From UHGV virus genome UHGV-1379488: DNA of 43,171 nucleotides; one strand, 5' to 3'. This document shows, piece after piece, positions 1,416 to 29,924 of this stretch. The translations under genes were made by a program, and so were the position numbers. Origin of the DNA: a virus. The notes beneath the pieces are model-generated. The model made no database searches and was not told the DNA's origin. It saw only the letters and a list, made by a program, of their open reading frames with translations. Position 1 is the first letter of the stretch. Each line of letters starts with the position of its first letter.

Positions 1416-2111
1416 TTATTTTAGACCAAACTGAGCTTTTGAAGTCAATTTTCCATTCGTAAAATACATAGTTGCATTGGCTCCTGATGAATTATCTCCA
1501 TACCATATGTATGCGGTGGAATTAATATCTAAGATATTAGTTTCTGCCATAGGCTCTCCATCTCCACCAATTATATCAACGCATTCTTGGTATGTCATCC
1601 CAGTAGTACATTGATTATATTCATTCAATGTTATGTGATAATTGTAAGTGCGTGGCCATGATGAAAATAACCCAGTTCCCCATAAGGTTATAAATAAAAC
1701 TGTAAGTATGATTCGTGTTGATTTTGTGCCTTTTTTGTAATACCACATTAAAAACAATCCTAAAGGCATACAACAAATAAAGAGCATTAGAAGATAAAAC
1801 CAATCCTTTTGATAGAATTTATAATCTTCAGTAGAATGTTCAATGATTTCTAATTCTGGATTATTTTCTTCAATTAGTTCAATGGTTCTTTTTATTTTGT
1901 CATTTGCTTTATGATTAAAATCAAAATGCTTTACATTATTTGGGCCATAAACAAAATCTAGATATCCACCACCTACACCAATTTGAAAATAACAATACTC
2001 TATTTTACTTAAATCCGAATAAGAAATTTTTGTGGAATTACCCAAAAAGTCTATAATTTTAGATTCCTTTTTTCCCACAAATAGTTCCTTAGTGGTGCCT
2101 TTTATACTCAT
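1416..2111 (-). CDS. hypothetical membrane protein (moron; N-terminal soluble domain, 2 TM, C-terminal small beta domain)
   Basis: Hydrophobic segments FYLLMLFICCMPLGLFLMWYY and IILTVLFITLWGTGLF. Region is much more AT-rich than the rest of the phage. Start chosen at MSIKG after a GGTGA RBS. Confidence 0.5.
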   Translation of the reverse strand: MSIKGTTKELFVGKKESKIIDFLGNSTKISYSDLSKIEYCYFQIGVGGGYLDFVYGPNNVKHFDFNHKANDKIKRTIELIEENNPELEIIEHSTEDYKFYQKDWFYLLMLFICCMPLGLFLMWYYKKGTKSTRIILTVLFITLWGTGLFSSWPRTYNYHITLNEYNQCTTGMTYQECVDIIGGDGEPMAETNILDINSTAYIWYGDNSSGANATMYFTNGKLTSKAQFGLK

Positions 2112-2132: not shown

Positions 2133-2627
2133 TCAATTAGAATCTTTATACTGTTCCATCTCTTCTTGATGTTCAATATAGGCATTACACATTTTTGCAT
2201 ATTGTTCTACATCAAACTTTTTTCTTTCTTCAAATCTTTTTCTAGTTAATTGTTCATTGTCAATAATTTTTTCTAGGTCATTTGATGGACAAAATTCTGG
2301 CCCTAGACATCCACTTTTTTCATAAGGTACCAATTTATTTAACTCTATTTTAATTTCATTCAATGAAGTTTCAAATATATCTTCATCTTTGGTGGTGTTT
2401 ATGATTTCAGCCAATGATTTTATGTGTTCTAAAATTGTTTCTGGTAATTCATCAATTTCTTTTTTGGCCCACTTACAATATATAAATATAGATAAAAAAA
2501 TCATAAACAATATCAAAGGTCCATAGCCAAATAAATAAAAGAAATTCTGAATACAGTATAATATTAAAAATGTTATAAGTAGAATTGATACCCCACCCAA
2601 AATACCTTTTATTGTTTCTGTAGACAT
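2133..2627 (-). CDS. hypothetical membrane protein (moron)
   Basis: Two TM helices (ILGGVSILLITFLILYCI, PLILFMIFLSIFIYC) followed by a charged cytoplasmic tail. Start set at internal ATG (MSTETIKG); the track ORF extends to 2813 but that upstream part is low-complexity basic sequence. Confidence 0.4.
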   Translation of the reverse strand: MSTETIKGILGGVSILLITFLILYCIQNFFYLFGYGPLILFMIFLSIFIYCKWAKKEIDELPETILEHIKSLAEIINTTKDEDIFETSLNEIKIELNKLVPYEKSGCLGPEFCPSNDLEKIIDNEQLTRKRFEERKKFDVEQYAKMCNAYIEHQEEMEQYKDSN

Positions 2628-4086: not shown

Positions 4087-4293
4087 GTGGAGAATGAAAA
4101 AATCATTTTTATGGACAAAGGGGCTTTGGCATTAGATTTGAATAGAGATAGTGCTACTTCGATTCTTTGCCAAGCTATGATGGACGAAACTGTGAGATTG
4201 CGGTCATGTATTTGGAAAAAGGAAAGAGATTCCATAAGGAAGTTTCTTATAGAATCTTTTCAAATAATTTCTGTAAATATTCAAGATAAGTAA
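4087..4293 (+). CDS. hypothetical protein
   Basis: GTG start 7 nt after AGGAGGAGG. The track ORF starts earlier at 4051 and overlaps the cro stop. Confidence 0.35.
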   Translation: MENEKIIFMDKGALALDLNRDSATSILCQAMMDETVRLRSCIWKKERDSIRKFLIESFQIISVNIQDK

Positions 4294-4759
4294 AATCAAG
4301 AAAAGCATTAAGGTGATAAGCGGCAAGCGAACCAATCAACCAATAAATACCAGTCAGGATTATATTGAGGATGAAAGGCAAATGTATATTTTTCGTTTGT
4401 ACCCAATGTGCAGGTAAAAATATTATGTGGATGGGAAAAATTGAATGTTTTAATCTATTCCTAAAAGTTCCAATTGTAATAAGAAATACTTTTTCAACCT
4501 CTAATTGATATTTTTTTCTATCGCACAAATAAGCAACATTTGTTAAACAACGTTGCTTATATCCTCCTTTATTTTCATCATAATAGGTTGGGTATGATGT
4601 ACCTGCTTGTTTGAATATTTCGTCAACATCTGGTATGTAAGATGACATTTCTTTTCCCGTGGTAAATCGACCATAAAGCCTTTTTGATTTTAAATACCAG
4701 TACGTATTTGAAATTATGCAATATACCCAAATACCAATGCATATAATAATGAGTTTCAT
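4247..4759 (-). CDS. hypothetical membrane protein, opposite orientation to the early operon (candidate exclusion or conversion gene)
   Basis: N-terminal TM (MKLIIICIGIWVYCII), C-terminal TMs. GAGGAG RBS. Possible extended -10 (TGATATAAT, minus strand) upstream. Confidence 0.5.
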   Translation of the reverse strand: MKLIIICIGIWVYCIISNTYWYLKSKRLYGRFTTGKEMSSYIPDVDEIFKQAGTSYPTYYDENKGGYKQRCLTNVAYLCDRKKYQLEVEKVFLITIGTFRNRLKHSIFPIHIIFLPAHWVQTKNIHLPFILNIILTGIYWLIGSLAAYHLNAFLDFTYLEYLQKLFEKIL

Positions 4760-4931
4760 TAGTTTGCTCCTCACAAACCGATATAAAAATTATATCATGT
4801 AATGAATAAAATGCCCCGGCGGTGCTACGAACACCAACCGGAGCCGTAACCACATTAACCAAACTAATGCGGATACAGGAATATTTTACCATTTTCTCCT
4901 GTATTACGCAAGCACAGGAGGAAAAATATTT

Positions 4932-5198
4932 ATGAACATTGAAAACCAGAAGGACAAGCCAACATGGGAAAGGCTGGAGCAGTATTTTGCGGTAGAGGTA
5001 ATCGAGCAGAGCAAGAGGAATGCAAAACATTGGTTTATAGCGTTCCTGGTAACACTGGCGGCGCTGATAGGCACCAATGCTGCATGGCTTTATACTGCCA
5101 GTACATATGACTATGTTTCCCAGGATGGCACCGGATTGAACAACATCAACACAGGAACGCAAGGAAACTTAGAGAATGGGACAGAGAGCCAGGATTAA
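4932..5198 (+). CDS. hypothetical small membrane protein
   Basis: AGGAGG RBS, one TM (WFIAFLVTLAALIGTNAAWLY). Confidence 0.5.
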   Translation: MNIENQKDKPTWERLEQYFAVEVIEQSKRNAKHWFIAFLVTLAALIGTNAAWLYTASTYDYVSQDGTGLNNINTGTQGNLENGTESQD

Positions 5199-5247
5199 GA
5201 AGAACGGCAAGAGTCGGGGAATCAAGAGGAAGAGAAGGAGATAAACG

Positions 5248-5346
5248 ATGTACATCAATCCATTTTTAGCAGGAGTAGCTTGCACTGTTTTTGCAGAGAT
5301 ACTAATAATTATAGCAATAGCGCTTTACCAGTATTTTAAAAGTTGA
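5248..5346 (+). CDS. 32-aa hydrophobic peptide (MYINPFLAGVACTVFAEILIIIAIALYQYFKS)
   Basis: Strong GAAGGAG RBS 7 nt upstream of the ATG. Below the ORF-track size cutoff. Confidence 0.4.
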   Translation: MYINPFLAGVACTVFAEILIIIAIALYQYFKS

Positions 5347-5362
5347 TAGGAGGTAGTAAGAG

Positions 5363-5575
5363 TTGAAACTTAGTAGAGATAAAATTGATATTGCTCTGGC
5401 TAGAAATTCTTTGACTATAACAAATCTTTCCAAACGGTATGGAGTGAGCCGGGCGCGTATGAATGTTATTTTAAATATGCGGGAAGTTACACCTGTGTGT
5501 GCCGGACGCATGGCAAATGCTCTTGGTGTGGATGTAAAAGAGATAATAGAAGATAATTTATCCTGGAATGTATAA
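5363..5575 (+). CDS. small HTH DNA-binding protein
   Basis: HTH-like segment LTITNLSKRYGVSRARMNVIL. TTG start 9 nt after GGAGG. Confidence 0.5.
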   Translation: MKLSRDKIDIALARNSLTITNLSKRYGVSRARMNVILNMREVTPVCAGRMANALGVDVKEIIEDNLSWNV

Positions 5576-5821: not shown

Positions 5822-5948
5822 ATACATACCTGTTGGTAAAACACACTTAAGCCCGCGTCAGAAAGACCGGATGATTATTCGAGGCTTAACTGCTGCGGTG
5901 ATGGTCTTAAGCGGATTGTTGGTGATATGTCTGGCGGTGATATTATGA
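5808..5948 (+). CDS. 46-aa small membrane protein (low confidence)
   Basis: GTG 10 nt after AAAGGAG. TM segment GLTAAVMVLSGLLVICLAVIL. Stop overlaps the next ATG (ATGA). Confidence 0.3.
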   Translation: MKQLEYIPVGKTHLSPRQKDRMIIRGLTAAVMVLSGLLVICLAVIL

Positions 5949-6133
5949 GCCGCCGCCGGAATGGCACTAACCGGGCCGGAGCAATGGTGAATGCCAGCCG
6001 GTACACTGGATATGGTAAGCCAATAAAAAAGGTCGTCAGCTTGACAGAGCTAAACGACCGGATACAAAAAATAACTCAGTCTGATTATATCAGAGATTAT
6101 GGAGGTTTGCAAGATGGAAGAAAGAATGGTTGA
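5945..6133 (+). CDS. hypothetical protein
   Basis: ATG at 5945 overlapping the preceding stop. Basic N-terminus. Confidence 0.4.
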   Translation: MSRRRNGTNRAGAMVNASRYTGYGKPIKKVVSLTELNDRIQKITQSDYIRDYGGLQDGRKNG

Positions 6134-6296
6134 AATTCCTGTTGATGAATATAGAAAGCTTATTGAGCTTGAAGGTCGGGTAAATGCAGCTTTGGTTTTT
6201 TTGGATACCGATGAATACGCACAGCGTAATGTACTGGTCGGTATTTTAAGAGGCGTGAAGGTTAAAGTCCCTATGGATAAAACGCATGATGAATAA
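6114..6296 (+). CDS. hypothetical protein
   Basis: ATG 8 nt after GGAGG. The track ORF starts at 6099. Confidence 0.5.
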   Translation: MEERMVEIPVDEYRKLIELEGRVNAALVFLDTDEYAQRNVLVGILRGVKVKVPMDKTHDE

Positions 6297-6438
6297 TTCA
6301 AAATGTGATTCCTGCGGGTGTTTCCTTGACCCGGATAGATGGAAAGTATGCGATAAATGTATTAAGAAAACTACAAGACGGAATAAAGAGCATTACAAGG
6401 AGGTTATAAAACATGAATCTGGAACACAAGATGATTGA
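6289..6438 (+). CDS. 49-aa Cys-rich zinc-ribbon peptide (CDSCGC...CDKC), low confidence
   Basis: In-frame ATG overlapping the upstream stop, no clear SD. Two CxxC pairs. Confidence 0.3.
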   Translation: MNNSKCDSCGCFLDPDRWKVCDKCIKKTTRRNKEHYKEVIKHESGTQDD

Positions 6439-6577
6439 TGGTACTGCAATGGTATCTTATCTCCGAGATAGACAGTCACACTTAAGCATTGGAAGTGATG
6501 CAAGAAAGGAGCTTGAAATGGCTGTCATCTATATAGTTGGAACGCTCATGAAGGAGGAAAAAGATGGGAAATCTTGA
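6413..6577 (+). CDS. 54-aa hypothetical protein
   Basis: AGGAGG RBS 9 nt before ATG 6413. Stop overlaps the start region of the next gene. Confidence 0.45.
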   Translation: MNLEHKMIDGTAMVSYLRDRQSHLSIGSDARKELEMAVIYIVGTLMKEEKDGKS

Positions 6578-7238
6578 CTTATACGAAAAGGTCCGTTCCG
6601 TCCCGGATAGCGCCAAGAAAACCATTAAGGGAGGACGTACAAGTGGTATGACCGATATCAACCCCATGTGGCGCATAAAAGTCCTTACTGAGCAGTTCGG
6701 TCCATGTGGTATAGGGTGGTACTACATACCTACACGAAAGTGGTTAGAAACATCAGGAAATGAGATAGCGGCTTTTGTGGATATCGAATTATACATAAAG
6801 GTTGACGGGGAATGGTCTAAACCAATTCCCGGAAACGGCGGCAGCATGTTTGCATCAAAAGAGAAATCCGGCATATATGTTTCGGACGAATGCTATAAAA
6901 TGGCAACCACAGATGCTATATCGGTAGCGTGTAAGCAGCTTGGAATTGGTGCTGATGTTTATTGGGATTCAGATAGAACTAAATATAACAAGCAGAATAG
7001 TCCAGATTTGATTACTGAATCTGATATCAATGAAATATTCCTGGAGCTGAAACGGACAGGAATAGGGATTAAGAATGTGCTATCAAAGTATGGACTGACT
7101 GATATTCATGATATGACTAATTCCCAGGCAAATGAAACAATTAAAAAGCTGAAAGAACATCCAGATAAGGAGTTAGTAATGCAGCCACCGAATGATATGC
7201 AGGATAGTGAACTACCATGGAATGACCCAAAGAGGTGA
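6564..7238 (+). CDS. Rad52/Sak-like single-strand annealing recombination protein
   Basis: GAAGGAGG RBS. Motifs EQFGPCGIGW and ATTDAISVACKQLGIGADVYW resemble Rad52-family phage SSAPs (recalled from memory, not searched). Confidence 0.55.
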   Translation: MGNLDLYEKVRSVPDSAKKTIKGGRTSGMTDINPMWRIKVLTEQFGPCGIGWYYIPTRKWLETSGNEIAAFVDIELYIKVDGEWSKPIPGNGGSMFASKEKSGIYVSDECYKMATTDAISVACKQLGIGADVYWDSDRTKYNKQNSPDLITESDINEIFLELKRTGIGIKNVLSKYGLTDIHDMTNSQANETIKKLKEHPDKELVMQPPNDMQDSELPWNDPKR

Positions 7239-7242
7239 TTAT

Positions 7243-7872
7243 ATGCATGAGGCAGCAGACATAATAGCATACAAGCTTGTTCCAGAGGGAACGTATCTAA
7301 AGATATTTATTCCTGGAAAAAATCTTATGGAACCAATCGTTGATAAGCACATGAATAGATGCAGTGTATGGCTTGACGATGGTAGACATATAAGTGCAGA
7401 CCAGCGCAGGAAGATTTATGCCACAGTTAATGACATCTCCGCCTATTCCGGGAACGTGCCGGAGGTTGAGAAAGAATGGCTTAAGTATTTACACATCAAC
7501 CGGACCGGATGCGGATATTTTTCCCTGTCTGATTGCTCTATGGATACTGCCAGGGAATTTATCAATACCATGCTGGATTATGCGCTGGAGCAGGGGATAC
7601 CGCTGCTGGATTTTGCCCTTAACCGTACCGATGACATAGGACATTACCTGTATGCGTGCTTGAAGCTGCGGAAGTGTGCCATATGTGGCCGGGATGGGGA
7701 GATACACCATGTAGACACAATCGGCATGGGAAATGACCGGAGGAAGGTTGATGATTCGGATTATCGCAAAATATGTCTATGCCGGAAGCACCATACAGAA
7801 GCACATAACATTGGTATGACAGCGTTTGAAAGTAGATATAAGGTATATGGAATTAAATTTGGAGATGATTAG
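7243..7872 (+). CDS. HNH/His-Me-finger nuclease-like protein (recombination-associated; NinG/Rap-like or DUF968-like)
   Basis: Cys/His cluster CAICGRDGEIHHVD...CLCRKHHTEAH. AAGAGGTGA RBS. Immediately downstream of the SSAP. Confidence 0.45.
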   Translation: MHEAADIIAYKLVPEGTYLKIFIPGKNLMEPIVDKHMNRCSVWLDDGRHISADQRRKIYATVNDISAYSGNVPEVEKEWLKYLHINRTGCGYFSLSDCSMDTAREFINTMLDYALEQGIPLLDFALNRTDDIGHYLYACLKLRKCAICGRDGEIHHVDTIGMGNDRRKVDDSDYRKICLCRKHHTEAHNIGMTAFESRYKVYGIKFGDD

Positions 7873-15473: not shown

Positions 15474-15550
15474 TGAGCGGTGGTCACCCGCCAAGATGAT
15501 TCCACCGCTCCCGTAAATACGTCTGAGTATATTATACCTTACTCAGACGT
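15474..15550. promoter_or_regulatory. two perfect inverted repeats upstream of the internal recombinase gene
   Basis: GAGCGGTGG...CCACCGCTC (15474-15482 / 15501-15509) and CGTCTGAGTA...TACTCAGACG (15521-15530 / 15541-15550). Confidence 0.5.
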
Positions 15551-15581
15551 GAAAATCAATACGAATGAGGAGGATATAATT

Positions 15582-16628
15582 ATGAGTACACAGACAATAA
15601 AAGCTGAAATAATCAACAATGTACTGGTAGCAATGTCCTTATATATCATGGAGCAGCAGACTCTTACCATTCTTCAAAATGTAATGCAGCAGGAATTAGT
15701 AAGGGTGAATATGGAGGAAATAACTACACTTCCAGCAGAAAGAAAGGATGATATAAGCCAGAGTAATCAGTACATAATACAGTTATTCTTGATAAAAAAG
15801 CGTGATTTGGCACGAGGAACCAAAGAAAACTATCTTAATTCCATACGAAGATTGCTGACAGAGATAAGCACAAAATCACTGGACCAGATGGACACCACTG
15901 ATATTGATTGGTATTTATCGCGGTATGAAATCAGAAATGTGTCCAGTGGAGGAAAGAAAAATCAGCCCAGTACCTATAATAACGAGCGCCGTTTTCTGTC
16001 GGCATTCTTTACATGGATGCGCCTTGAAAAGCTTATTGCAGATAATCCGGTAGAGTCTATACCAGCAAAGAAAGTACCAATTAAACCGATTGATTACTAC
16101 AGTCCAGAAGAATCAGCAAGGTTAAGGGATGCGTGCAAAAATATCCGAGAGAGGGCATTGCTGGAGGTGTTGCGCAGTACGGGGGCCAGGATAGGGGAGA
16201 TTGCGGAAATAACTCTGAACCAGATAGACATGGGAACCGGCGATATTTGGATTCAGGGAGAGAAAAGCGGAAGATATCGGACTATCTATCTGGATGATGA
16301 TGCGCGGCATTATTATGGCCTGTATTTGGACAGCAGGAAAGATGATTGCCTATATATGTTCCCGCGCTCCAGAAAACCGTATGGAAAAATGACTACTTGT
16401 GGATTTCGGGCGATATTGAAAACCATAAGGAAAAGAGCCGGCTTAACATGTCGGGTATATCCGCATAAGTCACGAAAGACGCTGGGGATGAATCTAAAAA
16501 ACAGAGGAGTTGATATTGGGACCATACAGGAAATTATGGGACATGCTGACCCAGGAGTTACGGCACGTTATTATGCACAGTCTAACCCGCGTACTCTTCG
16601 TTCAATAAGGGAAAGGGTTAATGTGTAG
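15582..16628 (+). CDS. second tyrosine recombinase (XerC/D- or integrase-family) inside the prophage
   Basis: SAM-like N-domain (TKENYLNSIRRLL). Catalytic region RSTGARIGE...HKSRKT...MGHADPGVTARYYA. GAGGAGG RBS 8 nt before ATG. Confidence 0.8.
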   Translation: MSTQTIKAEIINNVLVAMSLYIMEQQTLTILQNVMQQELVRVNMEEITTLPAERKDDISQSNQYIIQLFLIKKRDLARGTKENYLNSIRRLLTEISTKSLDQMDTTDIDWYLSRYEIRNVSSGGKKNQPSTYNNERRFLSAFFTWMRLEKLIADNPVESIPAKKVPIKPIDYYSPEESARLRDACKNIRERALLEVLRSTGARIGEIAEITLNQIDMGTGDIWIQGEKSGRYRTIYLDDDARHYYGLYLDSRKDDCLYMFPRSRKPYGKMTTCGFRAILKTIRKRAGLTCRVYPHKSRKTLGMNLKNRGVDIGTIQEIMGHADPGVTARYYAQSNPRTLRSIRERVNV

Positions 16629-17398: not shown

Positions 17399-17800
17399 GT
17401 GGCTTCCAGACTGACGGATAAGCAGAAAAAAGATATTATTGCTGATTATGTAGAGACTGGAAGCTACAATGCTACAGCAAAGAGATTTGGAGTGGCGCTG
17501 AACACAGTCAAAAAAATATGCACACAAAATGCAGATATTGCACAAAAATGCAAACAAAAAAAGGAACAGAACACAGCGGACATGTTAGCTTATATGGATT
17601 CCCGAAAAGAACAGGCGCAGGGAATCATTGATGAATATTTAAAGAAGTTAGCAGACCCAAAGAAATTAGAAAACGCTACTATTTCACAAATTGCAACAGC
17701 TATGGGAATTGTGGTTGATAAGTTTATGGATAACACTAAAAGGGGAGATAACACAGAGGGTATTACTATTTTGAATGATATACCAAAGGAAGAAAGGTAG
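17399..17800 (+). CDS. terS: terminase small subunit
   Basis: N-terminal HTH (LTDKQKKDIIADYVETGSYNATAKRFGV). Immediately upstream of and overlapping terL. GTG after AAGGGGTGGTGA. Confidence 0.7.
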   Translation: MASRLTDKQKKDIIADYVETGSYNATAKRFGVALNTVKKICTQNADIAQKCKQKKEQNTADMLAYMDSRKEQAQGIIDEYLKKLADPKKLENATISQIATAMGIVVDKFMDNTKRGDNTEGITILNDIPKEER

Positions 17801-19052
17801 AACAAAGAGTGTGGGTGAAATTGTTAAACTGACTGACGTAATCGCACCATCCTTCTATGACGTTCACTGGGATATTCTGGACGGTAATCATTCATATTAC
17901 GACCTGTACGGCGGGCGAGGTTCCGCGAAGTCCTCTTTTATATCAGCGGAGATTGTGCTAGGTATGATGGACGACCCAGAGGCCAATGCTGTTATATTCC
18001 GTAAATATGCCGTAACCATTGGAGAATCAGTCTTTGAGCAGATACAGTGGGCCATAGATGCATTGGGTGTAACAGACTTATGGGAATCCCGTACAAGTCC
18101 ATACCGATTTGTTTATAAGCCGACAGGACAAAAAATAATATTCCGTGGACTTGACAAGGCAAAGAAAACAAAATCTATAAAAGCCAGTAAAGGATACTTT
18201 AAATATCTATGGTTCGAGGAACTGGACGAATTTGCAGGACCGGAAGAAATACGAACTGTTGAGCAGTCAGTATTGCGTGGTGGCAGCAAGTTTGTTGTAT
18301 TTAAATCCTTCAACCCGCCTATCAGTCAAAGCAACTGGGCTAATCAGTATGTGAATACTCCAGACGATAGCGCGTATAGGCATAAAAGCGATTACCGTTC
18401 TGTGTCGATTGAATGGCTGGGAGAAATGTTTATTGAGCGTGCTGAACATCTTAAAGCCACCAATGAGCGGGCATATAATCATGAGTATTTAGGTTTGCCG
18501 GTTGGGCTTGGCACAAATATATTTGATATGCTGGAGATTAGAACAATCACGGATGAAGAAATACAGAGCTATCAATCTATATATCAAGGTCAGGATTTTG
18601 GGTGGTGGCCTGACCCTAAAGCATTTATTCGGGCAGCCTATGTAGCAAATAAAGAAAAAATTGTGTTATTAGATGAATTAGGCGGGTGCAAGATTAGAAA
18701 CTCTGATATGGCTCGCATGATACAGGAAAAAGGATACGATGATTATACTCTTATGTGTGGAGTGGACGAGAAGGAAAGTATTGTTGACCTTCGTGACGCT
18801 GGTATTCCAGCCCGTAGTGCTATTGTAACGCCTGGGAGTAGGAAATATACGTATGAATGGCTACAGTGTCGTACAATCGTCATAGACCCAGCCAGAACGC
18901 CAAGGGCATACAAAGAGATTATAGAGTATGAGCATGAGATTGATAGCAACGGAGAAGTGATTGCAGATTATCCAGACGGAAATGACCACTGGATAGATGC
19001 CTTACGGTATAGCATTTCTCCTATGGCTATGAGAAGGGGACACAGTGCGTAG
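17775..19052 (+). CDS. terL: terminase large subunit (PBSX/Terminase_3-like)
   Basis: Walker A-like DLYGGRGSAKSSF, nuclease-domain acidic residues, 425 aa. Start uncertain; GTG at 17808 is also possible. Confidence 0.85.
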   Translation: MIYQRKKGRTKSVGEIVKLTDVIAPSFYDVHWDILDGNHSYYDLYGGRGSAKSSFISAEIVLGMMDDPEANAVIFRKYAVTIGESVFEQIQWAIDALGVTDLWESRTSPYRFVYKPTGQKIIFRGLDKAKKTKSIKASKGYFKYLWFEELDEFAGPEEIRTVEQSVLRGGSKFVVFKSFNPPISQSNWANQYVNTPDDSAYRHKSDYRSVSIEWLGEMFIERAEHLKATNERAYNHEYLGLPVGLGTNIFDMLEIRTITDEEIQSYQSIYQGQDFGWWPDPKAFIRAAYVANKEKIVLLDELGGCKIRNSDMARMIQEKGYDDYTLMCGVDEKESIVDLRDAGIPARSAIVTPGSRKYTYEWLQCRTIVIDPARTPRAYKEIIEYEHEIDSNGEVIADYPDGNDHWIDALRYSISPMAMRRGHSA

Positions 19053-21303: not shown

Positions 21304-22536
21304 ATGTTAAGCCCTGATTACCTTGCAAGAATCGCAGAAGGAAGCGAAGAAATAGCCTCACAACTCCATACATACATTATTCGTCAGATAATAGACCGCA
21401 TGATGATACGCATAGGCCGCGGCGATGATTGCCTGCTCACCTCATCTGACCGATGGCGCATACATGTATTGCAGGACGCAGGGTATCTGCTGGAGGATAT
21501 AACAGCAGAGTTATCCAAGTACACCAAGAGGCAGGAGAAAGAGATTAAAGCGGCTATGGAGGAGGCCGGGATAAAAGCTCTGGAATACGACCACAGAATA
21601 TACGAGGCCGCCGGCCTGTCTCCTATGCCCCTGACGCAATCCCCGGCCCTTATTCGGCTGATGGAACGCAATTACCTGGCAACATTAGGGGAATGGAAAA
21701 ACTACACTAGGACAACCGCGCAATCTGCTCAAAGATTATTTATTAACGAGTGCGATATGGCCTATAACAAAGTTATGAGTGGAGCAACATCTTACACACA
21801 AGCAGTTAAAGAGGCCGTAGAAAATGTGGCCAGTGGGGGTATTACACTTGTTCAATATAGAAGTAAAAATACTGGAGATATAAGAAATGACACGATAGAG
21901 ACAGCTACAGCACGAGCGGTACGGACTGGTATAGCACAGGCTACGGCGGAAATTACGCTGGCAAGAATGGTAGAAATGAAGTGGGAAGTTGTGCTGGTGT
22001 CGGCGCATGTGGGCGCAAGAAATGTTGGGGGGATACCAGAGAATCATGAACTTTGGCAAGGAAAATTCTACAGTCTCCCGCAATATGGACATAGATTCCC
22101 GGATTTCTATTACTCTACAGGATATGGAGATATTACTGGATTGTGCGGAGTAAATTGTAGGCATAGTTTTGGACCAGGTGATGGAGAAAATAATCCGTAT
22201 GACCCAATAGACACAGAGGAAAATCGAAATCAGTACGAAAAAGAGCAACGCCAGCGAACGCTTGAACGCCGCATCCGCAAGACCAAGCGCGAGGTTATGG
22301 GCCTGCAAGAGGCCGTAGAGAAATGCCAGGACAAGGCGGCAAAGTTTGAGCTACAGCAGGCGCTTGACCGGAAATCCTACTTGCTATCCAAGCAGTATAA
22401 GGCATATAACGAGTTTTGTAAGGAGAATAACCTTAGAACTCAGTCAGAGAGATTACAGATTGCCCGCTGGAGCCGTGAACAGGCTGCAAAGGCCAGAGGG
22501 GCGGCGAGACGGTATCAAAATGCGAAAGGGGAATGA
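21304..22536 (+). CDS. minor head / head morphogenesis protein (Mu F-like, SPP1 gp7 family)
   Basis: HVGARNVGG...GLCGVNCRHSF motif region characteristic of the Phage_Mu_F domain. C-terminal coiled coil. Confidence 0.7.
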   Translation: MLSPDYLARIAEGSEEIASQLHTYIIRQIIDRMMIRIGRGDDCLLTSSDRWRIHVLQDAGYLLEDITAELSKYTKRQEKEIKAAMEEAGIKALEYDHRIYEAAGLSPMPLTQSPALIRLMERNYLATLGEWKNYTRTTAQSAQRLFINECDMAYNKVMSGATSYTQAVKEAVENVASGGITLVQYRSKNTGDIRNDTIETATARAVRTGIAQATAEITLARMVEMKWEVVLVSAHVGARNVGGIPENHELWQGKFYSLPQYGHRFPDFYYSTGYGDITGLCGVNCRHSFGPGDGENNPYDPIDTEENRNQYEKEQRQRTLERRIRKTKREVMGLQEAVEKCQDKAAKFELQQALDRKSYLLSKQYKAYNEFCKENNLRTQSERLQIARWSREQAAKARGAARRYQNAKGE

Positions 22537-26317: not shown

Positions 26318-26608
26318 TTAAATATGATTCCAATCTAACATAATATGGATTTCTTTTTCTTCATTATTGATTGCACATAGACAGGGTGATTCTTTCCCTT
26401 GAATCAGCTCGTTTGGTGTATAAGTCCAACCCCACGGAGCCGTCAACACAATGCCGGCCTCTGTCTCGTCACATCCCCATCCTTCTGGCACTGTGTATTC
26501 TATTGGTTCGCTTTCTACTGCTGTTGGATGAGGATTGCCCTCAGTAAATACCGGATGTTTCTCAGCAGCCAAACATCCATAATTTATGTATCCTTTAAAT
26601 GTTTTCAT
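26318..26608 (-). CDS. hypothetical protein
   Basis: AAGGAGGAG RBS 6 nt before ATG. Confidence 0.55.
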   Translation of the reverse strand: MKTFKGYINYGCLAAEKHPVFTEGNPHPTAVESEPIEYTVPEGWGCDETEAGIVLTAPWGWTYTPNELIQGKESPCLCAINNEEKEIHIMLDWNHI

Positions 26609-26620
26609 TTTTTCTCCTCC

Positions 26621-27037
26621 TTACAATATGGTTTCATGTACCTCGCGCCCTGCCCGCACATTTTCCAGGTAATTGGGGTCTATGCTCTTTGGACAGTACT
26701 CATAATCGCTGTCCTCAACTCCTATTTTTGCCATTTCGTCATGTATAATTTTAAAATAATCATCATGAGAAAAGTTGCGGGAATCAGAAAATACATTGTA
26801 ATTTTCCGGTAACAATTTCTCATAGGCCAAATCTGAAAACTTATTTAAAAGTTTTTTCATTAGACATGGATGAATAAGCTCCTCCAATTGTCTGATGATT
26901 AATTCTTCGGCCCAGGGAGCCGGGTTCCGTTTCCCGGCCTCCCAATCCTCTATGGTCCTTTTAGGTATACCAAGGTAATCAGATAAATCAGATTGTGACA
27001 TGTGCGCTTTCGTACGGTACTCTTTAATTCCGTTCAT
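26621..27037 (-). CDS. XRE-family HTH regulator with unknown C-terminal domain
   Basis: HTH_XRE segment MSQSDLSDYLGIPKRTIEDWEAGKRNP. AAGGAGGG RBS 5 nt before the ATG of MNGIKEY. Confidence 0.6.
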   Translation of the reverse strand: MNGIKEYRTKAHMSQSDLSDYLGIPKRTIEDWEAGKRNPAPWAEELIIRQLEELIHPCLMKKLLNKFSDLAYEKLLPENYNVFSDSRNFSHDDYFKIIHDEMAKIGVEDSDYEYCPKSIDPNYLENVRAGREVHETIL

Positions 27038-27047
27038 AAATCCCTCC

Positions 27048-27359
27048 TTATTTAACATGTTCTATTATGTATTTGGCATCTGTCATTTTCTCTAACTGGC
27101 TGATAAGGCTGTCAATTCCGGCTGTATAACTCTGTGCATCCATTTTGCCATTGGACATCATCATTCCAGCCATCTCGTCTGTTTTAAAAACCTTCTGGGA
27201 CAGAATATCTTTTGCATATGCCACCTGTTTCTCAGTTCCAGTCATTTCTTGGGTAAACATAAAAGCAATGATTTTATGGCAGTCGGCCCGGTCTACAAGG
27301 ATATTATATCCGTTCAGCTCGTTTCTCATTTCCTTTGTATTATCTGCTCGCTTCATCAT
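27048..27359 (-). CDS. hypothetical protein (first gene of the reverse operon)
   Basis: GGATGGGGGA RBS. Its own promoter lies upstream. Confidence 0.5.
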   Translation of the reverse strand: MMKRADNTKEMRNELNGYNILVDRADCHKIIAFMFTQEMTGTEKQVAYAKDILSQKVFKTDEMAGMMMSNGKMDAQSYTAGIDSLISQLEKMTDAKYIIEHVK

Positions 27360-27392
27360 TTTTTATTTCCCCCATCCTTTATCTTATGTATT

Positions 27393-27423
27393 TATTTTAC
27401 CACGCATTGCGTGGCGTGTCAAG
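27393..27423 (-). promoter_or_regulatory. sigma-A promoter (TTGACA-17-TAAAAT) with a perfect palindrome CCACGCATTGCGTGG (27400-27414) in the spacer
   Basis: Minus-strand hexamers correspond to plus-strand 27417-27422 and 27393-27398. Confidence 0.6.
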
Positions 27424-27434
27424 GGGCAATATTA

Positions 27435-27473
27435 AAATGTGGGGACGATTATTTTTTGCGAATAAGTTAAAAT
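27435..27473 (+). promoter_or_regulatory. candidate late promoter copy 2: AAATGTGGGGACG - 20 nt - TAAAAT
   Basis: Matches 17307-17346. Lies upstream of the KTR ORF, the tRNAs and the capsid operon. Confidence 0.45.
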
Positions 27474-27503: not shown

Positions 27504-27674
27504 CATGGTAAAAAACGGTTGGGTATACTGCCCTATATGTAACAATAAGACCAGGACAAAAATAAGAAAAGATACAGAAGCCAAGAATTTACCTGTGTTT
27601 TGCCCAAAGTGCAGGAATACAACTGTTATGGATATATATGGAAGTAAAATAAAAAGAATGCAAAGCATTAAATA
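27504..27674 (+). CDS. 56-aa cysteine-rich KTR-type zinc ribbon protein
   Basis: YCPICNNKTRTKIRKD...FCPKCRN. Below the ORF-track size cutoff. Confidence 0.5.
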
Positions 27675-27871
27675 GAGCCAGTCGCCAGTCGCAGAGCCAT
27701 ACAGATTACAGCAATGTAGTTTGCATGGCTTTTTACTATATTTGAACCTCCCTCCTATAGCACATGTCCTTAACAGAAACAGGTCCTAGCTCATAGAGTA
27801 AACAGCCTGGAGGTTGAAAAGCGGACGCAATTTCCGGCATGTGCATCAAATTGAAAATATAAAATTGAAAA

Positions 27872-27944
27872 CGGGAAATAGCTCTGATAGCAGAGCAGCG
27901 GCCTTATAAGCCGTGTGTCAGGGGTTCAATTCCTCTTTTCCCGA
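27872..27944 (+). tRNA. tRNA-like gene, anticodon UAU (putative tRNA-Ile reading AUA), atypical D-loop lacking GG
   Basis: Perfect 7-bp acceptor (CGGGAAA/TTTCCCG), D-stem GCTC/GAGC, anticodon stem GCGGC/GCCGT with loop CTTATAA, T-arm AGGGG-TTCAATT-CCTCT. The D-loop TGATAGCA has no G18G19. Confidence 0.5.
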
Positions 27945-28096
27945 TGTGGCCGGGTCGCTCCCGGATGATGTGAGAGTACGCAGAACACCTCACAGAGAAT
28001 GACAATTCCTGCTGAAAACTGCCGGAGTACAGTAAAAGTTTGAATGGGCCATAGCTGAATGATGATGGTGTGATAATCTAAGCGGGAACTGCTTAA

Positions 28097-28185
28097 TGAG
28101 GCTTCGCCAAGCGGTTAAGGCACCGGGCTTTGACCCCGGCAGAGAAGGAACACTCTTTACGCTGGTTCGAATCCAGCAGCCTCAG
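28097..28185 (+). tRNA. tRNA-Gln(UUG)-like gene with a long (21-nt) variable arm
   Basis: Acceptor TGAGGCT/AGCCTCA with U1-A72 and G73. D-arm TCGCCAAGCGGTTAAGGCACCGG is nearly identical to bacterial tRNA-Gln. Anticodon loop CTTTGAC. T-arm GCTGG-TTCGAAT-CCAGC. Hairpin AGAG-AAGGAACA-CTCT inserted in the variable region. Confidence 0.6.
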
Positions 28186-28277
28186 TTTCGGACACGCCAA
28201 GTCCTACAAAATGGCAAACCGTTGGTGGACGGTTACACACCTACAAATAACCTAATAACGGAAAAGGAGAATCATCA

Positions 28278-28898
28278 ATGAAAACCGAAGAATTAAAGTC
28301 ACAGGGATTGACAGAGGAACAGATATCTTTTGTCATGGCTGAAAATGGGAAAGACCTTAAAAAGTTGCAGAAAGAAAATGACAATCTGACATCTGAACGG
28401 GATACCTGGAAAGAAAAAGCAGAGGCAGCAGAAACAACGTTGAAAGGATTTGAAGGGGTTGACCTGGAGACAATGCAGAAGGAACTGTCTGACTGGAAAC
28501 AGAAAGCTACAGAAGCCGAAAAAAACGCCCAGGCACAGCTTTATGAACGTGATTTCGCAGATGCGCTTAAGACAGAATTTGAAGGTATTAAATTTTCCAG
28601 CGACGCAGCTAAACGTGCAATTATGGCAGAAGTAAAAAAGGCCGATTTAAAGCTAAAAGATGGTAAAATCCTGGGGCTGAATGACCTTTTATCTCAAATG
28701 AAAGAAAAAGATGCTTCGGCATTTGTTGATGATGCGCAGCAGCAGGCACAGCAGAACATGGCGAGGTTCACGGCCCCGGCCGGCAAAAGCGGAAGCGCAG
28801 GAACATTAACAAAAGCGGATTGGAAGGGAATGAGCCTTGACGAGAGGATTGCGCTCAAGAACAGCAACCCGGAACTCTATAACAGTATGAAAGGATAA
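28278..28898 (+). CDS. scaffolding protein
   Basis: AAGGAG RBS. Coiled-coil, Glu/Lys/Gln-rich. Immediately upstream of the capsid gene. Confidence 0.65.
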   Translation: MKTEELKSQGLTEEQISFVMAENGKDLKKLQKENDNLTSERDTWKEKAEAAETTLKGFEGVDLETMQKELSDWKQKATEAEKNAQAQLYERDFADALKTEFEGIKFSSDAAKRAIMAEVKKADLKLKDGKILGLNDLLSQMKEKDASAFVDDAQQQAQQNMARFTAPAGKSGSAGTLTKADWKGMSLDERIALKNSNPELYNSMKG

Positions 28899-28904
28899 TG
28901 AATC

Positions 28905-29924
28905 ATGCCAAGAACAGGTACATTTGGAGGGTTTGCATTTGACCCGGAAGTATTTGCTGATTATATGTCGGAGCAGCCTACATGGAGCAATGCAATCATT
29001 GCATCCGGCATACTCCAGCAGGACAGCACCATCATGAACCTCATCGGTTCTGAGGGTAATGTTGCCACACTGCCATTCTATAAGGCGATGGACATTGCAG
29101 ACTATGAGCCGTACAACAATGATGGTAACACGAACAACACGCCGAAGGAGATTAGCGGCGGAAAGCAGACCGCCATGCTGATTCAGAGGATGATGGCATG
29201 GAAGGCACAGGACTTCACGAAGGAGCTTACCGGAGCGGACCCGATGCAGCATATCGCAAACAGCGTGTCCGACTATTATCGGCAGGTATGGGAGGCCGAA
29301 CTCATGAACATCGTGAATGCGGTCATGGGGCTGGATTCGATGAAAGACCATGTATACAACATCGCCCTTTCGGAGGGGAGCAGCGTACAGGATGCCAACA
29401 GGATTGACGAAACGACCATGATTTATGCGCAGCAGAAGGCCCTTGGGGACATGGCGAACGGTTTCGGAATCGCAATCATGAACTCACTCATATTTGCGAG
29501 ATACCAGGCAATGGGGCTTGTGAACTATAACAAGTATACCATCCAGAATGCCATGACATCGGAGGTCAACCTCCCGACAATCAACGGCCTCATCCCGGTA
29601 GTGTCTGACCGGTTCACGGTAGATACATCTGGCGATGTCCCGAAGTACATCACCACAATCGTGGGTCAGGGTTCCATCTTGACGGCAGAGAAGACCAATT
29701 ACAATGAGCCGTACTACACAGACTATGATGCGGAGACCAAGGCAGGTATCGAGAAACTGTATACTAAGGAAGGCCGTGTACTGCATCCGAACGGCTTCAA
29801 TCTCAAGGTTGCAAGCATTGCCGGAGAATCCCCGACCAAGACGGAACTTGGAGACAAGGCTAACTGGGAGCTTGCATACAAGGCAAAGAACATCCGTATC
29901 GGTCAGATTATTTCCAACGGATAA
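28905..29924 (+). CDS. major capsid protein
   Basis: 339 aa, follows the scaffold. Composition and position typical. Confidence 0.65.
   Translation: MPRTGTFGGFAFDPEVFADYMSEQPTWSNAIIASGILQQDSTIMNLIGSEGNVATLPFYKAMDIADYEPYNNDGNTNNTPKEISGGKQTAMLIQRMMAWKAQDFTKELTGADPMQHIANSVSDYYRQVWEAELMNIVNAVMGLDSMKDHVYNIALSEGSSVQDANRIDETTMIYAQQKALGDMANGFGIAIMNSLIFARYQAMGLVNYNKYTIQNAMTSEVNLPTINGLIPVVSDRFTVDTSGDVPKYITTIVGQGSILTAEKTNYNEPYYTDYDAETKAGIEKLYTKEGRVLHPNGFNLKVASIAGESPTKTELGDKANWELAYKAKNIRIGQIISNG

Follow-up and report, generated by a model that had tools for sequence, protein, structure and literature searches.

A long variable arm is the textbook preserve of the tRNAs for leucine, serine, selenocysteine and, in bacteria, tyrosine, where it serves as an identity mark for the synthetase. 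Why, then, would a glutamine tRNA carry one? The question is raised by the viral genome UHGV-1379488, whose 43,171 nucleotides (nt) are the stretch analyzed here, referred to as the window. A tRNA-Gln(UUG) gene of 89 nt on its forward strand (28097..28185) places 21 nt, including a hairpin, between the anticodon and T stems. Related genes form a family in which a fifth helix in the variable region is supported by covariation, and a glutamine tRNA with such an arm is a conserved structural departure in a central molecule. Judged from its sequence, the gene probably encodes a working elongator tRNA-Gln(UUG) whose mature form retains the fifth helix. What the arm does is a separate matter, for which several explanations are weighed below.

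Structure of the tRNA-Gln(UUG) Gene

ARAGORN predicts a tRNA-Gln(ttg) with ends exactly at 28097-28185. The Rfam tRNA model RF00005 recognizes the same gene as a tRNA at 56.2 bits (gathering score 29, E = 1.3e-9) and assigns an 18-nt insertion to its variable region, and our own covariance model R1, described below, also includes it. Read in order, the gene is UGAGGCU-UC-GCCAAGCGGUUAAGGC-A-CCGGG-CUUUGAC-CCCGG-CAGAGAAGGAACACUCUUUAC-GCUGG-UUCGAAU-CCAGC-AGCCUCA-G. The acceptor stem of 7 base pairs (bp; UGAGGCU, 28097-28103, with AGCCUCA, 28178-28184) begins with U1-A72 and is followed by the discriminator G73 (28185). The D-arm (GCCAAGCGGUUAAGGC, 28106-28121) has a 3-bp stem, the anticodon arm a 5-bp stem (CCGGG/CCCGG) closing the loop CUUUGAC (28128-28134), and the T arm (GCUGG-UUCGAAU-CCAGC) a 5-bp stem. 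ARAGORN, Rfam and direct reading agree on the anticodon UUG (28130-28132), and neither program proposes another anticodon for 28097-28185. The anticodon loop has the U33 and A37 expected of tRNA-Gln, and the glutamine elements U1-A72, G2-C71, G10 and a Gln-type D-arm, on which GlnRS and GatCAB rely, are all present, as is G73. The tertiary positions U8, A14, G15 with C48, G18G19 and the T-loop UUCGAAU are intact. CCA is not encoded; UUUC directly follows the gene.

The variable region (28140-28160, 21 nt, CAGAGAAGGAACACUCUUUAC) consists of C44, AGAG (28141-28144), the loop AAGGAACA (28145-28152), CUCU (28153-28156) and UUAC, which ends in C48 (28160). Class I tRNAs have a variable loop of 4-5 nt, whereas the present region exceeds 10 nt and forms a stem-loop between positions 45 and 48, as class II arms do. 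The minimum free energy (MFE) fold of the whole tRNA includes the variable hairpin and beats 200 of 200 shuffles (z = -3.46). A first-pass annotation, made from the letters alone, had described a Gln-type tRNA with a class-II-sized variable arm and had pointed to the acceptor with U1-A72 and G73, the Gln-like D-arm, the loop CUUUGAC with UUG, and the AGAG/CTCT hairpin within 21 nt between the anticodon and T stems. The description holds in each of these points by direct reading; the anticodon and the assignment to tRNA-Gln(UUG) are borne out by ARAGORN and Rfam as well, and the hairpin by the MFE fold.

A Family of Long-Arm Glutamine tRNAs

Similar genes were sought with two patterns. The strict pattern, a Gln-type anticodon arm with an over-long distance to the T-loop, matched at least 45 viral contigs in IMG/VR. 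Among deposited phages, the tRNA was found only in the unannotated GenBank faecal contig MT838775. The relaxed pattern, with the Gln-type D-arm fixed and the anticodon free, was scanned against genome and viral collections and gave at least 243 matches, of which at least 95 carry the anticodon TTG. When paired acceptor, anticodon and T stems were required, at least 41 distinct long tRNA-Gln sequences were left, including one with an internally duplicated anticodon arm (L143; L numbers denote loci) that was then dropped as an artefact. The family comprises at least 30 distinct variable regions with lengths of 15-34 nt. ARAGORN, run on the collected loci, reports at least 83 long tRNA-Gln(UUG) genes in viral loci and at least seven in loci from metagenome-assembled genomes (MAGs). 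The collected viral loci also hold at least 14 canonical tRNA-Gln(UUG) genes, but the ratio of 83:14 comes from pattern-selected loci and is not a prevalence. The long and canonical types of tRNA-Gln(UUG) never share a collected locus, and in arrays with the long-arm type the long-arm gene is the sole tRNA-Gln(UUG).

Most members share the loop CUUUGAC, and all variable regions share a frame of CA plus 0-4 nt, a stem, a loop, the returning stem, and 2-4 nt ending in C48. Within this frame many stems are unrelated in sequence (CAGCAGA/UCUGCUC; GAACAUUG/CGGUGUUC; GGGCUGG/CCACCC; GCUGUUCU.../...AGAACAGU; GC-GAAA-GC). The hairpin potential of the family averages 4.97 bp compared with 2.98 +/- 0.35 in shuffled sequences, and none of 300 shuffles reaches the observed mean (best 3.87).

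An alignment of 12 divergent members with MAFFT misregistered the variable stems and was replaced by a 'CAAG...GCUC' seed and covariance-model alignment. The resulting model R1 has five helices and aligns 30 members at 72.8-105.5 bits (window 75.4). In this alignment, 96.3% of the cells are paired (71.8% after shuffling, with none of 500 shuffles as high) and the covariation score is 0.629 (0.172 shuffled, 0.07-0.11 in slid controls); these values come from an alignment fitted to the model structure, whereas the shuffle test of hairpin potential is independent of it. In the variable helix, each of the five pairs varies on both of its sides, and the three outermost are intact in 24/27, 25/26, and 23/25 sequences, respectively. 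Pairing in the four standard helices reaches 99-100% among the 30 relatives, again with compensatory changes. The fifth helix is hence supported by covariation, and the recurrence of the same architecture with compensatory changes in many independent loci is more than chance would give. Compensation of this kind across divergent relatives is, moreover, what a structural element of the mature RNA would show.

Other candidates were excluded by the same requirement for paired stems. In L064, L066, L082, L092, L101, L104, L111, and L142, a second GTTCRAWTC motif lies behind a canonical tRNA-Gln. L062, L073, L115, and L149 have runs of N inside the variable region. These runs (26, 19, 10 nt) lie between the anticodon and T arms of tRNA-Gln genes (CUG in L062, L073, and L149; UUG in L115), represent masking or scaffolding gaps, and make the variable length unreadable. 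L073 and L149 belong to Lachnoclostridium / Lachnospiraceae UBA MAGs.

Glutamine Identity and Decoding

Elements of glutamine identity are kept throughout the family. Among 32 members, the 1-72 pair is UA in 23, AU in six and GU in three, and never G-C; G2-C71 occurs in 31 of the 32, and the D stem of 3 bp never changes. Position 73 takes three different bases (G 24, A 7, U 1), and 15 of the 32 variable stems are only 2-4 bp long.

Codon evolution provides a non-circular test of decoding, for which the structural genes of the window were aligned codon by codon with those of related phages by way of tblastn. Opposite CAA codons of the window, relatives have CAG in 136 and CAA in 98 of 384 aligned cells, so that glutamine codons fill 234 of the 384; no enrichment of serine, leucine or tyrosine was found in these cells. 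GAA/GAG and AAA/AAG swap in the same way, and ATA aligns with ATT and ATC. The interchange of CAA with CAG and of ATA with ATT and ATC suggests that CAA is read as glutamine and ATA as isoleucine. Codon evolution thus indicates decoding of CAA/CAG as glutamine. ATA makes up 41-49% of the isoleucine codons of the phage, which fits a need for the tRNA-Ile(UAU) encoded beside the tRNA-Gln; this tRNA reads AUA without lysidine.

Class I synthetases and GatCAB approach a tRNA from the D-arm/minor-groove side and the elbow. GlnRS contacts G2, G3, G10, positions 34-38, A72, and G73, and not the variable region (PMC5766645). Taken together, the side of approach and these contacts suggest that the added arm should be tolerated.

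A plausible path to a working tRNA can be drawn from these elements. The tRNA-Gln is probably co-transcribed with the late genes. Its 5' side would be cut by RNase P and its 3' side by RNase Z, the latter proposed because no CCA is encoded, and CCA would be added by the host CCA-adding enzyme. Charging would follow the host route for glutamine, either GlnRS or a non-discriminating GluRS together with GatCAB. Once charged, the tRNA would decode CAA, and perhaps also CAG, as glutamine.

An Accessory tRNA Cassette Upstream of the Scaffold Gene

With about 43 kb and a G+C content of 41%, the window represents a temperate siphovirus-like phage that probably infects a member of the gut Clostridia or Lachnospiraceae. 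No near-identical genome was found among deposited phages. Genes for an integrase (15480-16628), the large terminase (17775-19052), and minor capsid protein 2 (21304-22536) precede the tRNA genes, which lie in the rightward head-morphogenesis block. The first gene downstream of tRNA-Gln encodes the capsid scaffolding protein (28278..28898, forward strand; Pfam PF06810 Phage_scaffold, E = 9.3e-29), followed by a Gp13-like major capsid gene (28905-29924).

The tRNA-Gln is part of an accessory cassette of 340 nt (27845..28184, forward strand like all elements in it). The cassette consists of a short spacer, a tRNA-Ile(UAU) of canonical length (27872..27944, 73 nt; ARAGORN, and Rfam at 60 bits), a spacer of 152 nt (27945..28096), and the tRNA-Gln. 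The 152-nt spacer has no significant fold (z = 0.19) and no Rfam match at E <= 5. To its left, the cassette adjoins a RAGATH-21 RNA motif (27759..27845, forward strand; Rfam RF03097, 78.8 bits, gathering 70.3), which is also present upstream in L001, L006, and L011. On the right follows a GP20-b RNA motif, the 5' leader of the scaffold gene (28190..28254, forward strand; Rfam RF03003, 39.4 bits, gathering 36.2). It begins 4 nt past the tRNA-Gln discriminator in the window, and the spacing is 4-5 nt across the window, L006, and L023.

Comparison by blastn and alignment with L243, L245, L247, and L248, which have no tRNA, shows the cassette to be one clean indel between RAGATH-21 and GP20-b. These relatives align up to window position 27844 and resume at 28185/28186, while their own coordinates are contiguous; the boundary is ambiguous by 1 nt, and the right edge is the 3' end of tRNA-Gln. 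The relatives without the cassette can be very close: the scaffold gene of L243 is 100% identical to that of the window, and L247 and L248 are 94% identical across 2.4 kb upstream. In the four tRNA-less loci, RAGATH-21 and GP20-b are 5 nt apart at about position 2400 (...GGCAUGUGCG-UUUCG-GGACACGCC...). The two motifs may represent one composite leader of the scaffold gene, with the cassette inserted at their junction.

Among 80 scaffold-related loci, 45 have no tRNA, 25 have tRNA-Ile(UAU) only, seven have tRNA-Ile and an 89-nt tRNA-Gln, one has tRNA-Gln only, and two have tRNA-Val. A canonical-length tRNA-Gln was found in none of these 80 loci at the position upstream of the scaffold gene.

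Two further features lie to the left of RAGATH-21. A leftward three-gene module interrupts the rightward late region (26318-27435, reverse strand) and encodes an unknown protein of 103 amino acids (aa), an XRE/HTH_3 regulator of 145 aa, and an unknown protein of 96 aa. It is preceded by a strong sigma-70-like promoter with TG (TTGACA-17-TAAAAT, 27422->27394), is common to the window, L247, and L248, and looks like a moron or toxin-antitoxin-like insert. Searches with the proteins neighbouring the window tRNA returned only the XRE-type regulator and unknown proteins. A Zn-ribbon protein of 56 aa with two CxxC pairs (MVKNGWVYCPICNNKTRTKIRKD...CPKCRN) is encoded just upstream of RAGATH-21 (27505-27675, forward strand) and is kept in relatives without tRNAs.

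Possible Functions of the Variable Arm

The arm is kept as a helix and not as a sequence and, hence, most likely acts through its shape. By analogy with phage tRNAs that escape tRNA-targeting defences (PMC10264068, PMC11555353), the arm might alter how other tRNA-binding proteins see the tRNA, acting as a steric shield or an anti-determinant against a host tRNA-binding factor. We favour this reading over the others, but only tentatively. The leading candidate targets would be host tRNA-cleaving defence nucleases or toxins, and the shield would leave use by the synthetase, EF-Tu and the ribosome intact. Factors that work on the variable region are known: Septu acts on the variable loop of tRNA-Tyr (PMC13096335), and VapC52 (PMC13273310) and Retron-Eco7 (PMC12673091) recognize or cut the tRNA variable loop. 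In the loci L155 and L187, an RtcB-type RNA ligase is encoded about 2 kb from the array with the long-arm tRNA-Gln. A wider form of the idea is more doubtful still: phages might repeatedly have given class I tRNAs, most clearly tRNA-Gln and sporadically tRNA-Ile(UAU), tRNA-Asn(GUU), and tRNA-Trp(CCA), a variable arm as a disguise that blocks nucleases or toxins and leaves charging and decoding intact. Such a disguise would be a shape-based counter-defence distinct from the known anticodon-loop escape mutations.

Several observations weigh against a working tRNA with a protective arm, in addition to the fitting of the covariation alignment mentioned above. The variable stem of the window itself is short, with 4 bp, an 8-nt loop and -2.3 kcal/mol on its own. 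CAA accounts for only 33% of the glutamine codons in the late genes, so codon supplementation is not a compelling motive. The absence of any tRNA from 45 of the 80 scaffold-related loci means that the cassette is dispensable. The anticodon loop of the window tRNA is ordinary and bears no sign of the anticodon-loop escape known in other phages. Searches near the window tRNA with Pfam, PHROGs, PADLOC, and NCBIfam found no defence, anti-defence, RNA-repair, nuclease, ligase or modification genes. Finally, the closest isolate is only Blautia phage Montmirail, with a large terminase (TerL) 49.6% identical.

The patchy, dispensable cassette and the weak stem in the window would also suit another account, in which the hairpin is a neutral insertion kept by drift and has no effect beyond that of a canonical phage tRNA-Gln. 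The variable region is the sole site at which the length of a tRNA is naturally free, neither the loop nor the stem sequence is conserved across the family, and variable hairpins turn up occasionally in phage tRNA-Ile(UAU), tRNA-Trp(CCA), and tRNA-Asn(GUU). Yet drift should erode or delete such an insert in some lineages. A canonical-length tRNA-Gln takes this position in none of the relatives of this phage. Hairpin potential far exceeds that of shuffles, and all five pairs are compensated across tRNA bodies that differ throughout their acceptor, anticodon and T stems. We therefore regard a tolerated passenger as rather unlikely, though it deserves to be kept in mind.

The first-pass annotation had also named a regulatory or processing feature, a thought that the position of the gene invites. 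Since tRNA-Gln ends 4 nt before GP20-b, its excision would define the 5' end of the scaffold mRNA. The tRNA could accordingly serve mainly to recruit RNase P and RNase Z for cutting the late transcript just upstream of GP20-b, the leader of the scaffold and capsid mRNA, with decoding secondary and the arm tuning processing. The spacing of 4-5 nt in the window, L006, and L023 is in line with this, as is the placement of RAGATH-21 at the same position in tRNA-less relatives. Further, no sigma-70-like promoter was seen for the cassette except a weak 9/12 match inside RAGATH-21. A role of this kind is nevertheless improbable, because large phages hold the long-arm tRNA-Gln in ordinary arrays far from scaffold genes, a cleavage signal would not need the conserved anticodon loop and Gln-type identity positions, and relatives manage without tRNA-Gln.

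Long variable arms and G73 are the main determinants for SerRS (PMC7609411, PMC5389517), and the window copy combines G73 with G2-C71 and C11-G24. Along with the precedent of nematode nev-tRNAs, which are charged with leucine (PMC3333845), this could suggest an identity switch or deliberate mistranslation, in which the tRNA is a substrate of SerRS (or LeuRS, TyrRS) and CAA is partly read as serine, leucine or tyrosine. Altered charging had also been raised by the first-pass annotation, but we find it very improbable: CAA and CAG swap synonymously with no enrichment of the three residues, G1-C72 never occurs, N73 varies and almost half of the variable stems (15/32) have just 2-4 bp. The body is moreover of the Gln type, whereas that of nev-tRNAs is of the Leu type, and a host tRNA-Gln would be expected to compete at CAA.

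The same annotation had considered an intron-like insertion. The tRNA introns known from bacteria belong to group I, run to hundreds of nt and interrupt the anticodon loop; archaeal bulge-helix-bulge (BHB) introns depend on a splicing endonuclease that bacteria are not known to possess. That the extra 16 nt or so are removed after transcription, or that the gene is a degenerating pseudogene, is scarcely credible, even though the insertion interrupts an otherwise canonical tRNA-Gln and odd tRNA variants such as L143 do occur in assemblies: the insertion lies in the variable region and not in the anticodon loop, no intron family matched the tRNA region in Rfam with either the gathering threshold or E <= 5 as the cut-off, pairing is maintained with compensatory changes while boundaries and length (15-34 nt) vary, the invariant tRNA positions are all intact in the window copy, and there are at least 83 copies in viral loci.

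A working elongator tRNA-Gln with a retained fifth helix would have consequences beyond this phage. A family that, by its codon evolution, apparently still decodes glutamine carries the arm, so the arm can serve something other than aminoacylation identity. If it protects from tRNA-directed immunity, it would be a new structural strategy in the conflict of phage and host over tRNAs and would suggest that gut Clostridia harbour a tRNA-Gln-targeting system still to be discovered. Such genes may be scored wrongly by annotation pipelines and isotype classifiers. Natural, arm-bearing, Gln-specific scaffolds could also aid tRNA engineering, for example as sites for the insertion of tags or aptamers. 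Nature also provides pairs of nearly isogenic phages, one carrying the 340-nt cassette and the other lacking it, which opens the question to experiment.

Carriers and Other Long-Arm tRNAs

Most carriers of the long-arm tRNA-Gln are viral contigs, ranging from temperate-looking phages of about 22-47 kb to phages of 94-208 kb, in which the gene sits inside ordinary tRNA arrays. The few MAG contigs that carry it are mostly phage-like. L155 has the same array as the phage L187, an integrase is present in L098, and L050 and L061 have many open reading frames without matches. L163, from a Gastranaerophilaceae MAG, carries genes of the YidC-like and signal-peptidase kinds and may be of cellular origin, for which reason we do not claim that the long-arm type is exclusive to phages.

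Some arrays contain further unusual elements. L155 encodes an RtcB-type RNA ligase (phrog_1075, E = 2.6e-143) and an ATP-dependent DNA ligase (4311-5516 and 5948-7264) downstream of its tRNA array, and L187 has the same genes; such ligases are typical of phages that repair cleaved tRNAs. A tmRNA accompanies the long-arm tRNA-Gln in the phage-like arrays of L061 and L036 (2543-2921, forward strand). In L061, it is joined by an amber-suppressor tRNA(CUA) whose body is Gln-like (U1-A72 and a Gln-type D-arm), suggesting recoding of TAG to glutamine; the L061 features lie at 1758-2108 and 2448-2526 (reverse strand). L206 (IMG/VR 3300028832_004966) has a tRNA(CUA) that combines U1-A72 with a variable region of 16 nt and may be a long-arm amber suppressor. 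In L050, a tRNA (4244-4323, reverse strand) with an 8-nt anticodon loop and, according to ARAGORN, the four-base anticodon 'ttct' adjoins the long-arm tRNA-Gln and may be frameshift-suppressor-like. L002 contains a RAGATH-18 RNA (1547-1621, reverse strand, 62.2 bits), and its long-arm tRNA-Gln adjoins tRNA-Met, tRNA-Thr, and tRNA-Pro.

The arm phenomenon is not restricted to glutamine. Variable-arm hairpins also occur in phage tRNA-Ile(UAU) of 88-91 nt, tRNA-Trp(CCA) of 92 nt, and tRNA-Asn(GUU). The loci of these other class I long-arm phage tRNAs are L214 (10191-10281, reverse strand), L211 (8400-8487, forward strand), and L210 (5026-5117, forward strand), together with L170, L172, L194, L221, and L225 as well as L067, L141, L173, L196, and L219. 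A chromosomal-looking tRNA-Thr(UGU) whose variable region forms a hairpin of some 16 nt (CCCCAGAAAUGGGCAC) is kept in several Eremiobacterota / 'Ca. Cybelea' MAGs (L048, L053, L083, L089, L108, L119, L146, L147) and may be a cellular class-II-shaped tRNA-Thr.

Comparison With Known tRNAs

We found no description of a long-arm tRNA-Gln in the literature, including reviews of non-canonical tRNAs (PMC7609411, PMC5389517). Among the nearest known tRNAs is the canonical Firmicute-type tRNA-Gln(UUG). The two share UUG in CUUUGAC, the weak U1-A72 pair, G2-C71, the 7/5 acceptor/T geometry, the D-arm GCCAAGCGGU(U)AAGGC with a 3-bp stem, G15-C48, G18G19, and UUCGAAU. They differ in the variable region, which has 5 nt (CAUUC/CAUGC type) in the canonical tRNA but 21 nt with a hairpin in the window and 15-34 nt in the family.

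With the bacterial class II tRNAs for leucine, serine and tyrosine, the window tRNA shares a stem-loop between positions 45 and 48, a few unpaired nt 3' of the stem, and a kept C48. Its arm size and stem overlap the arms of tRNA-Tyr, which has a short arm of 13-14 nt and 3 bp, and of tRNA-Leu. By contrast, its anticodon UUG and acceptor identity are of the Gln type. The D-loop of tRNA-Ser and tRNA-Leu has a 20a/20b extension that supports the arm, whereas the window has the short Gln-type D-loop without it. Of the class II determinants (G1-C72, with A73 for leucine and tyrosine and G73 for serine), G1-C72 is absent and N73 is unfixed in the Gln family.

Non-standard tRNAs with long arms are known from other sources. 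Nematode nev-tRNAs also combine a long variable arm with a class I anticodon (PMC3333845), and eukaryotic noncanonical V-arm-containing tRNAs (nov-tRNAs) have been described (Hamashima et al., 2016, as summarized in PMC5766645). The nev- and nov-tRNAs are eukaryotic, have a Leu-like body and are charged with leucine, whereas the present tRNAs have a Gln-like body and phage carriers, so that the likeness is one of analogy only. Allo-tRNAs and the selC* tRNA-Cys are likewise non-standard bacterial or phage long-arm tRNAs from metagenomes (PMC5389517), but they have 8/4 or 9/3 acceptor/T branches, Sec- or Ser-like bodies and long anticodon and D stems, in contrast to the 7/5 geometry found here.

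The last comparison is with phage tRNAs that escape defence (PMC10264068; for T5 against a retron and PARIS, PMC11555353). In both cases, the phage encodes an accessory isoacceptor that is structurally unlike that of the host. The known escaping tRNAs differ from the host tRNA in the anticodon loop or stem, whereas in the long-arm tRNA-Gln the loop is ordinary and an arm has been added. The shield proposed above is modelled on these tRNAs.

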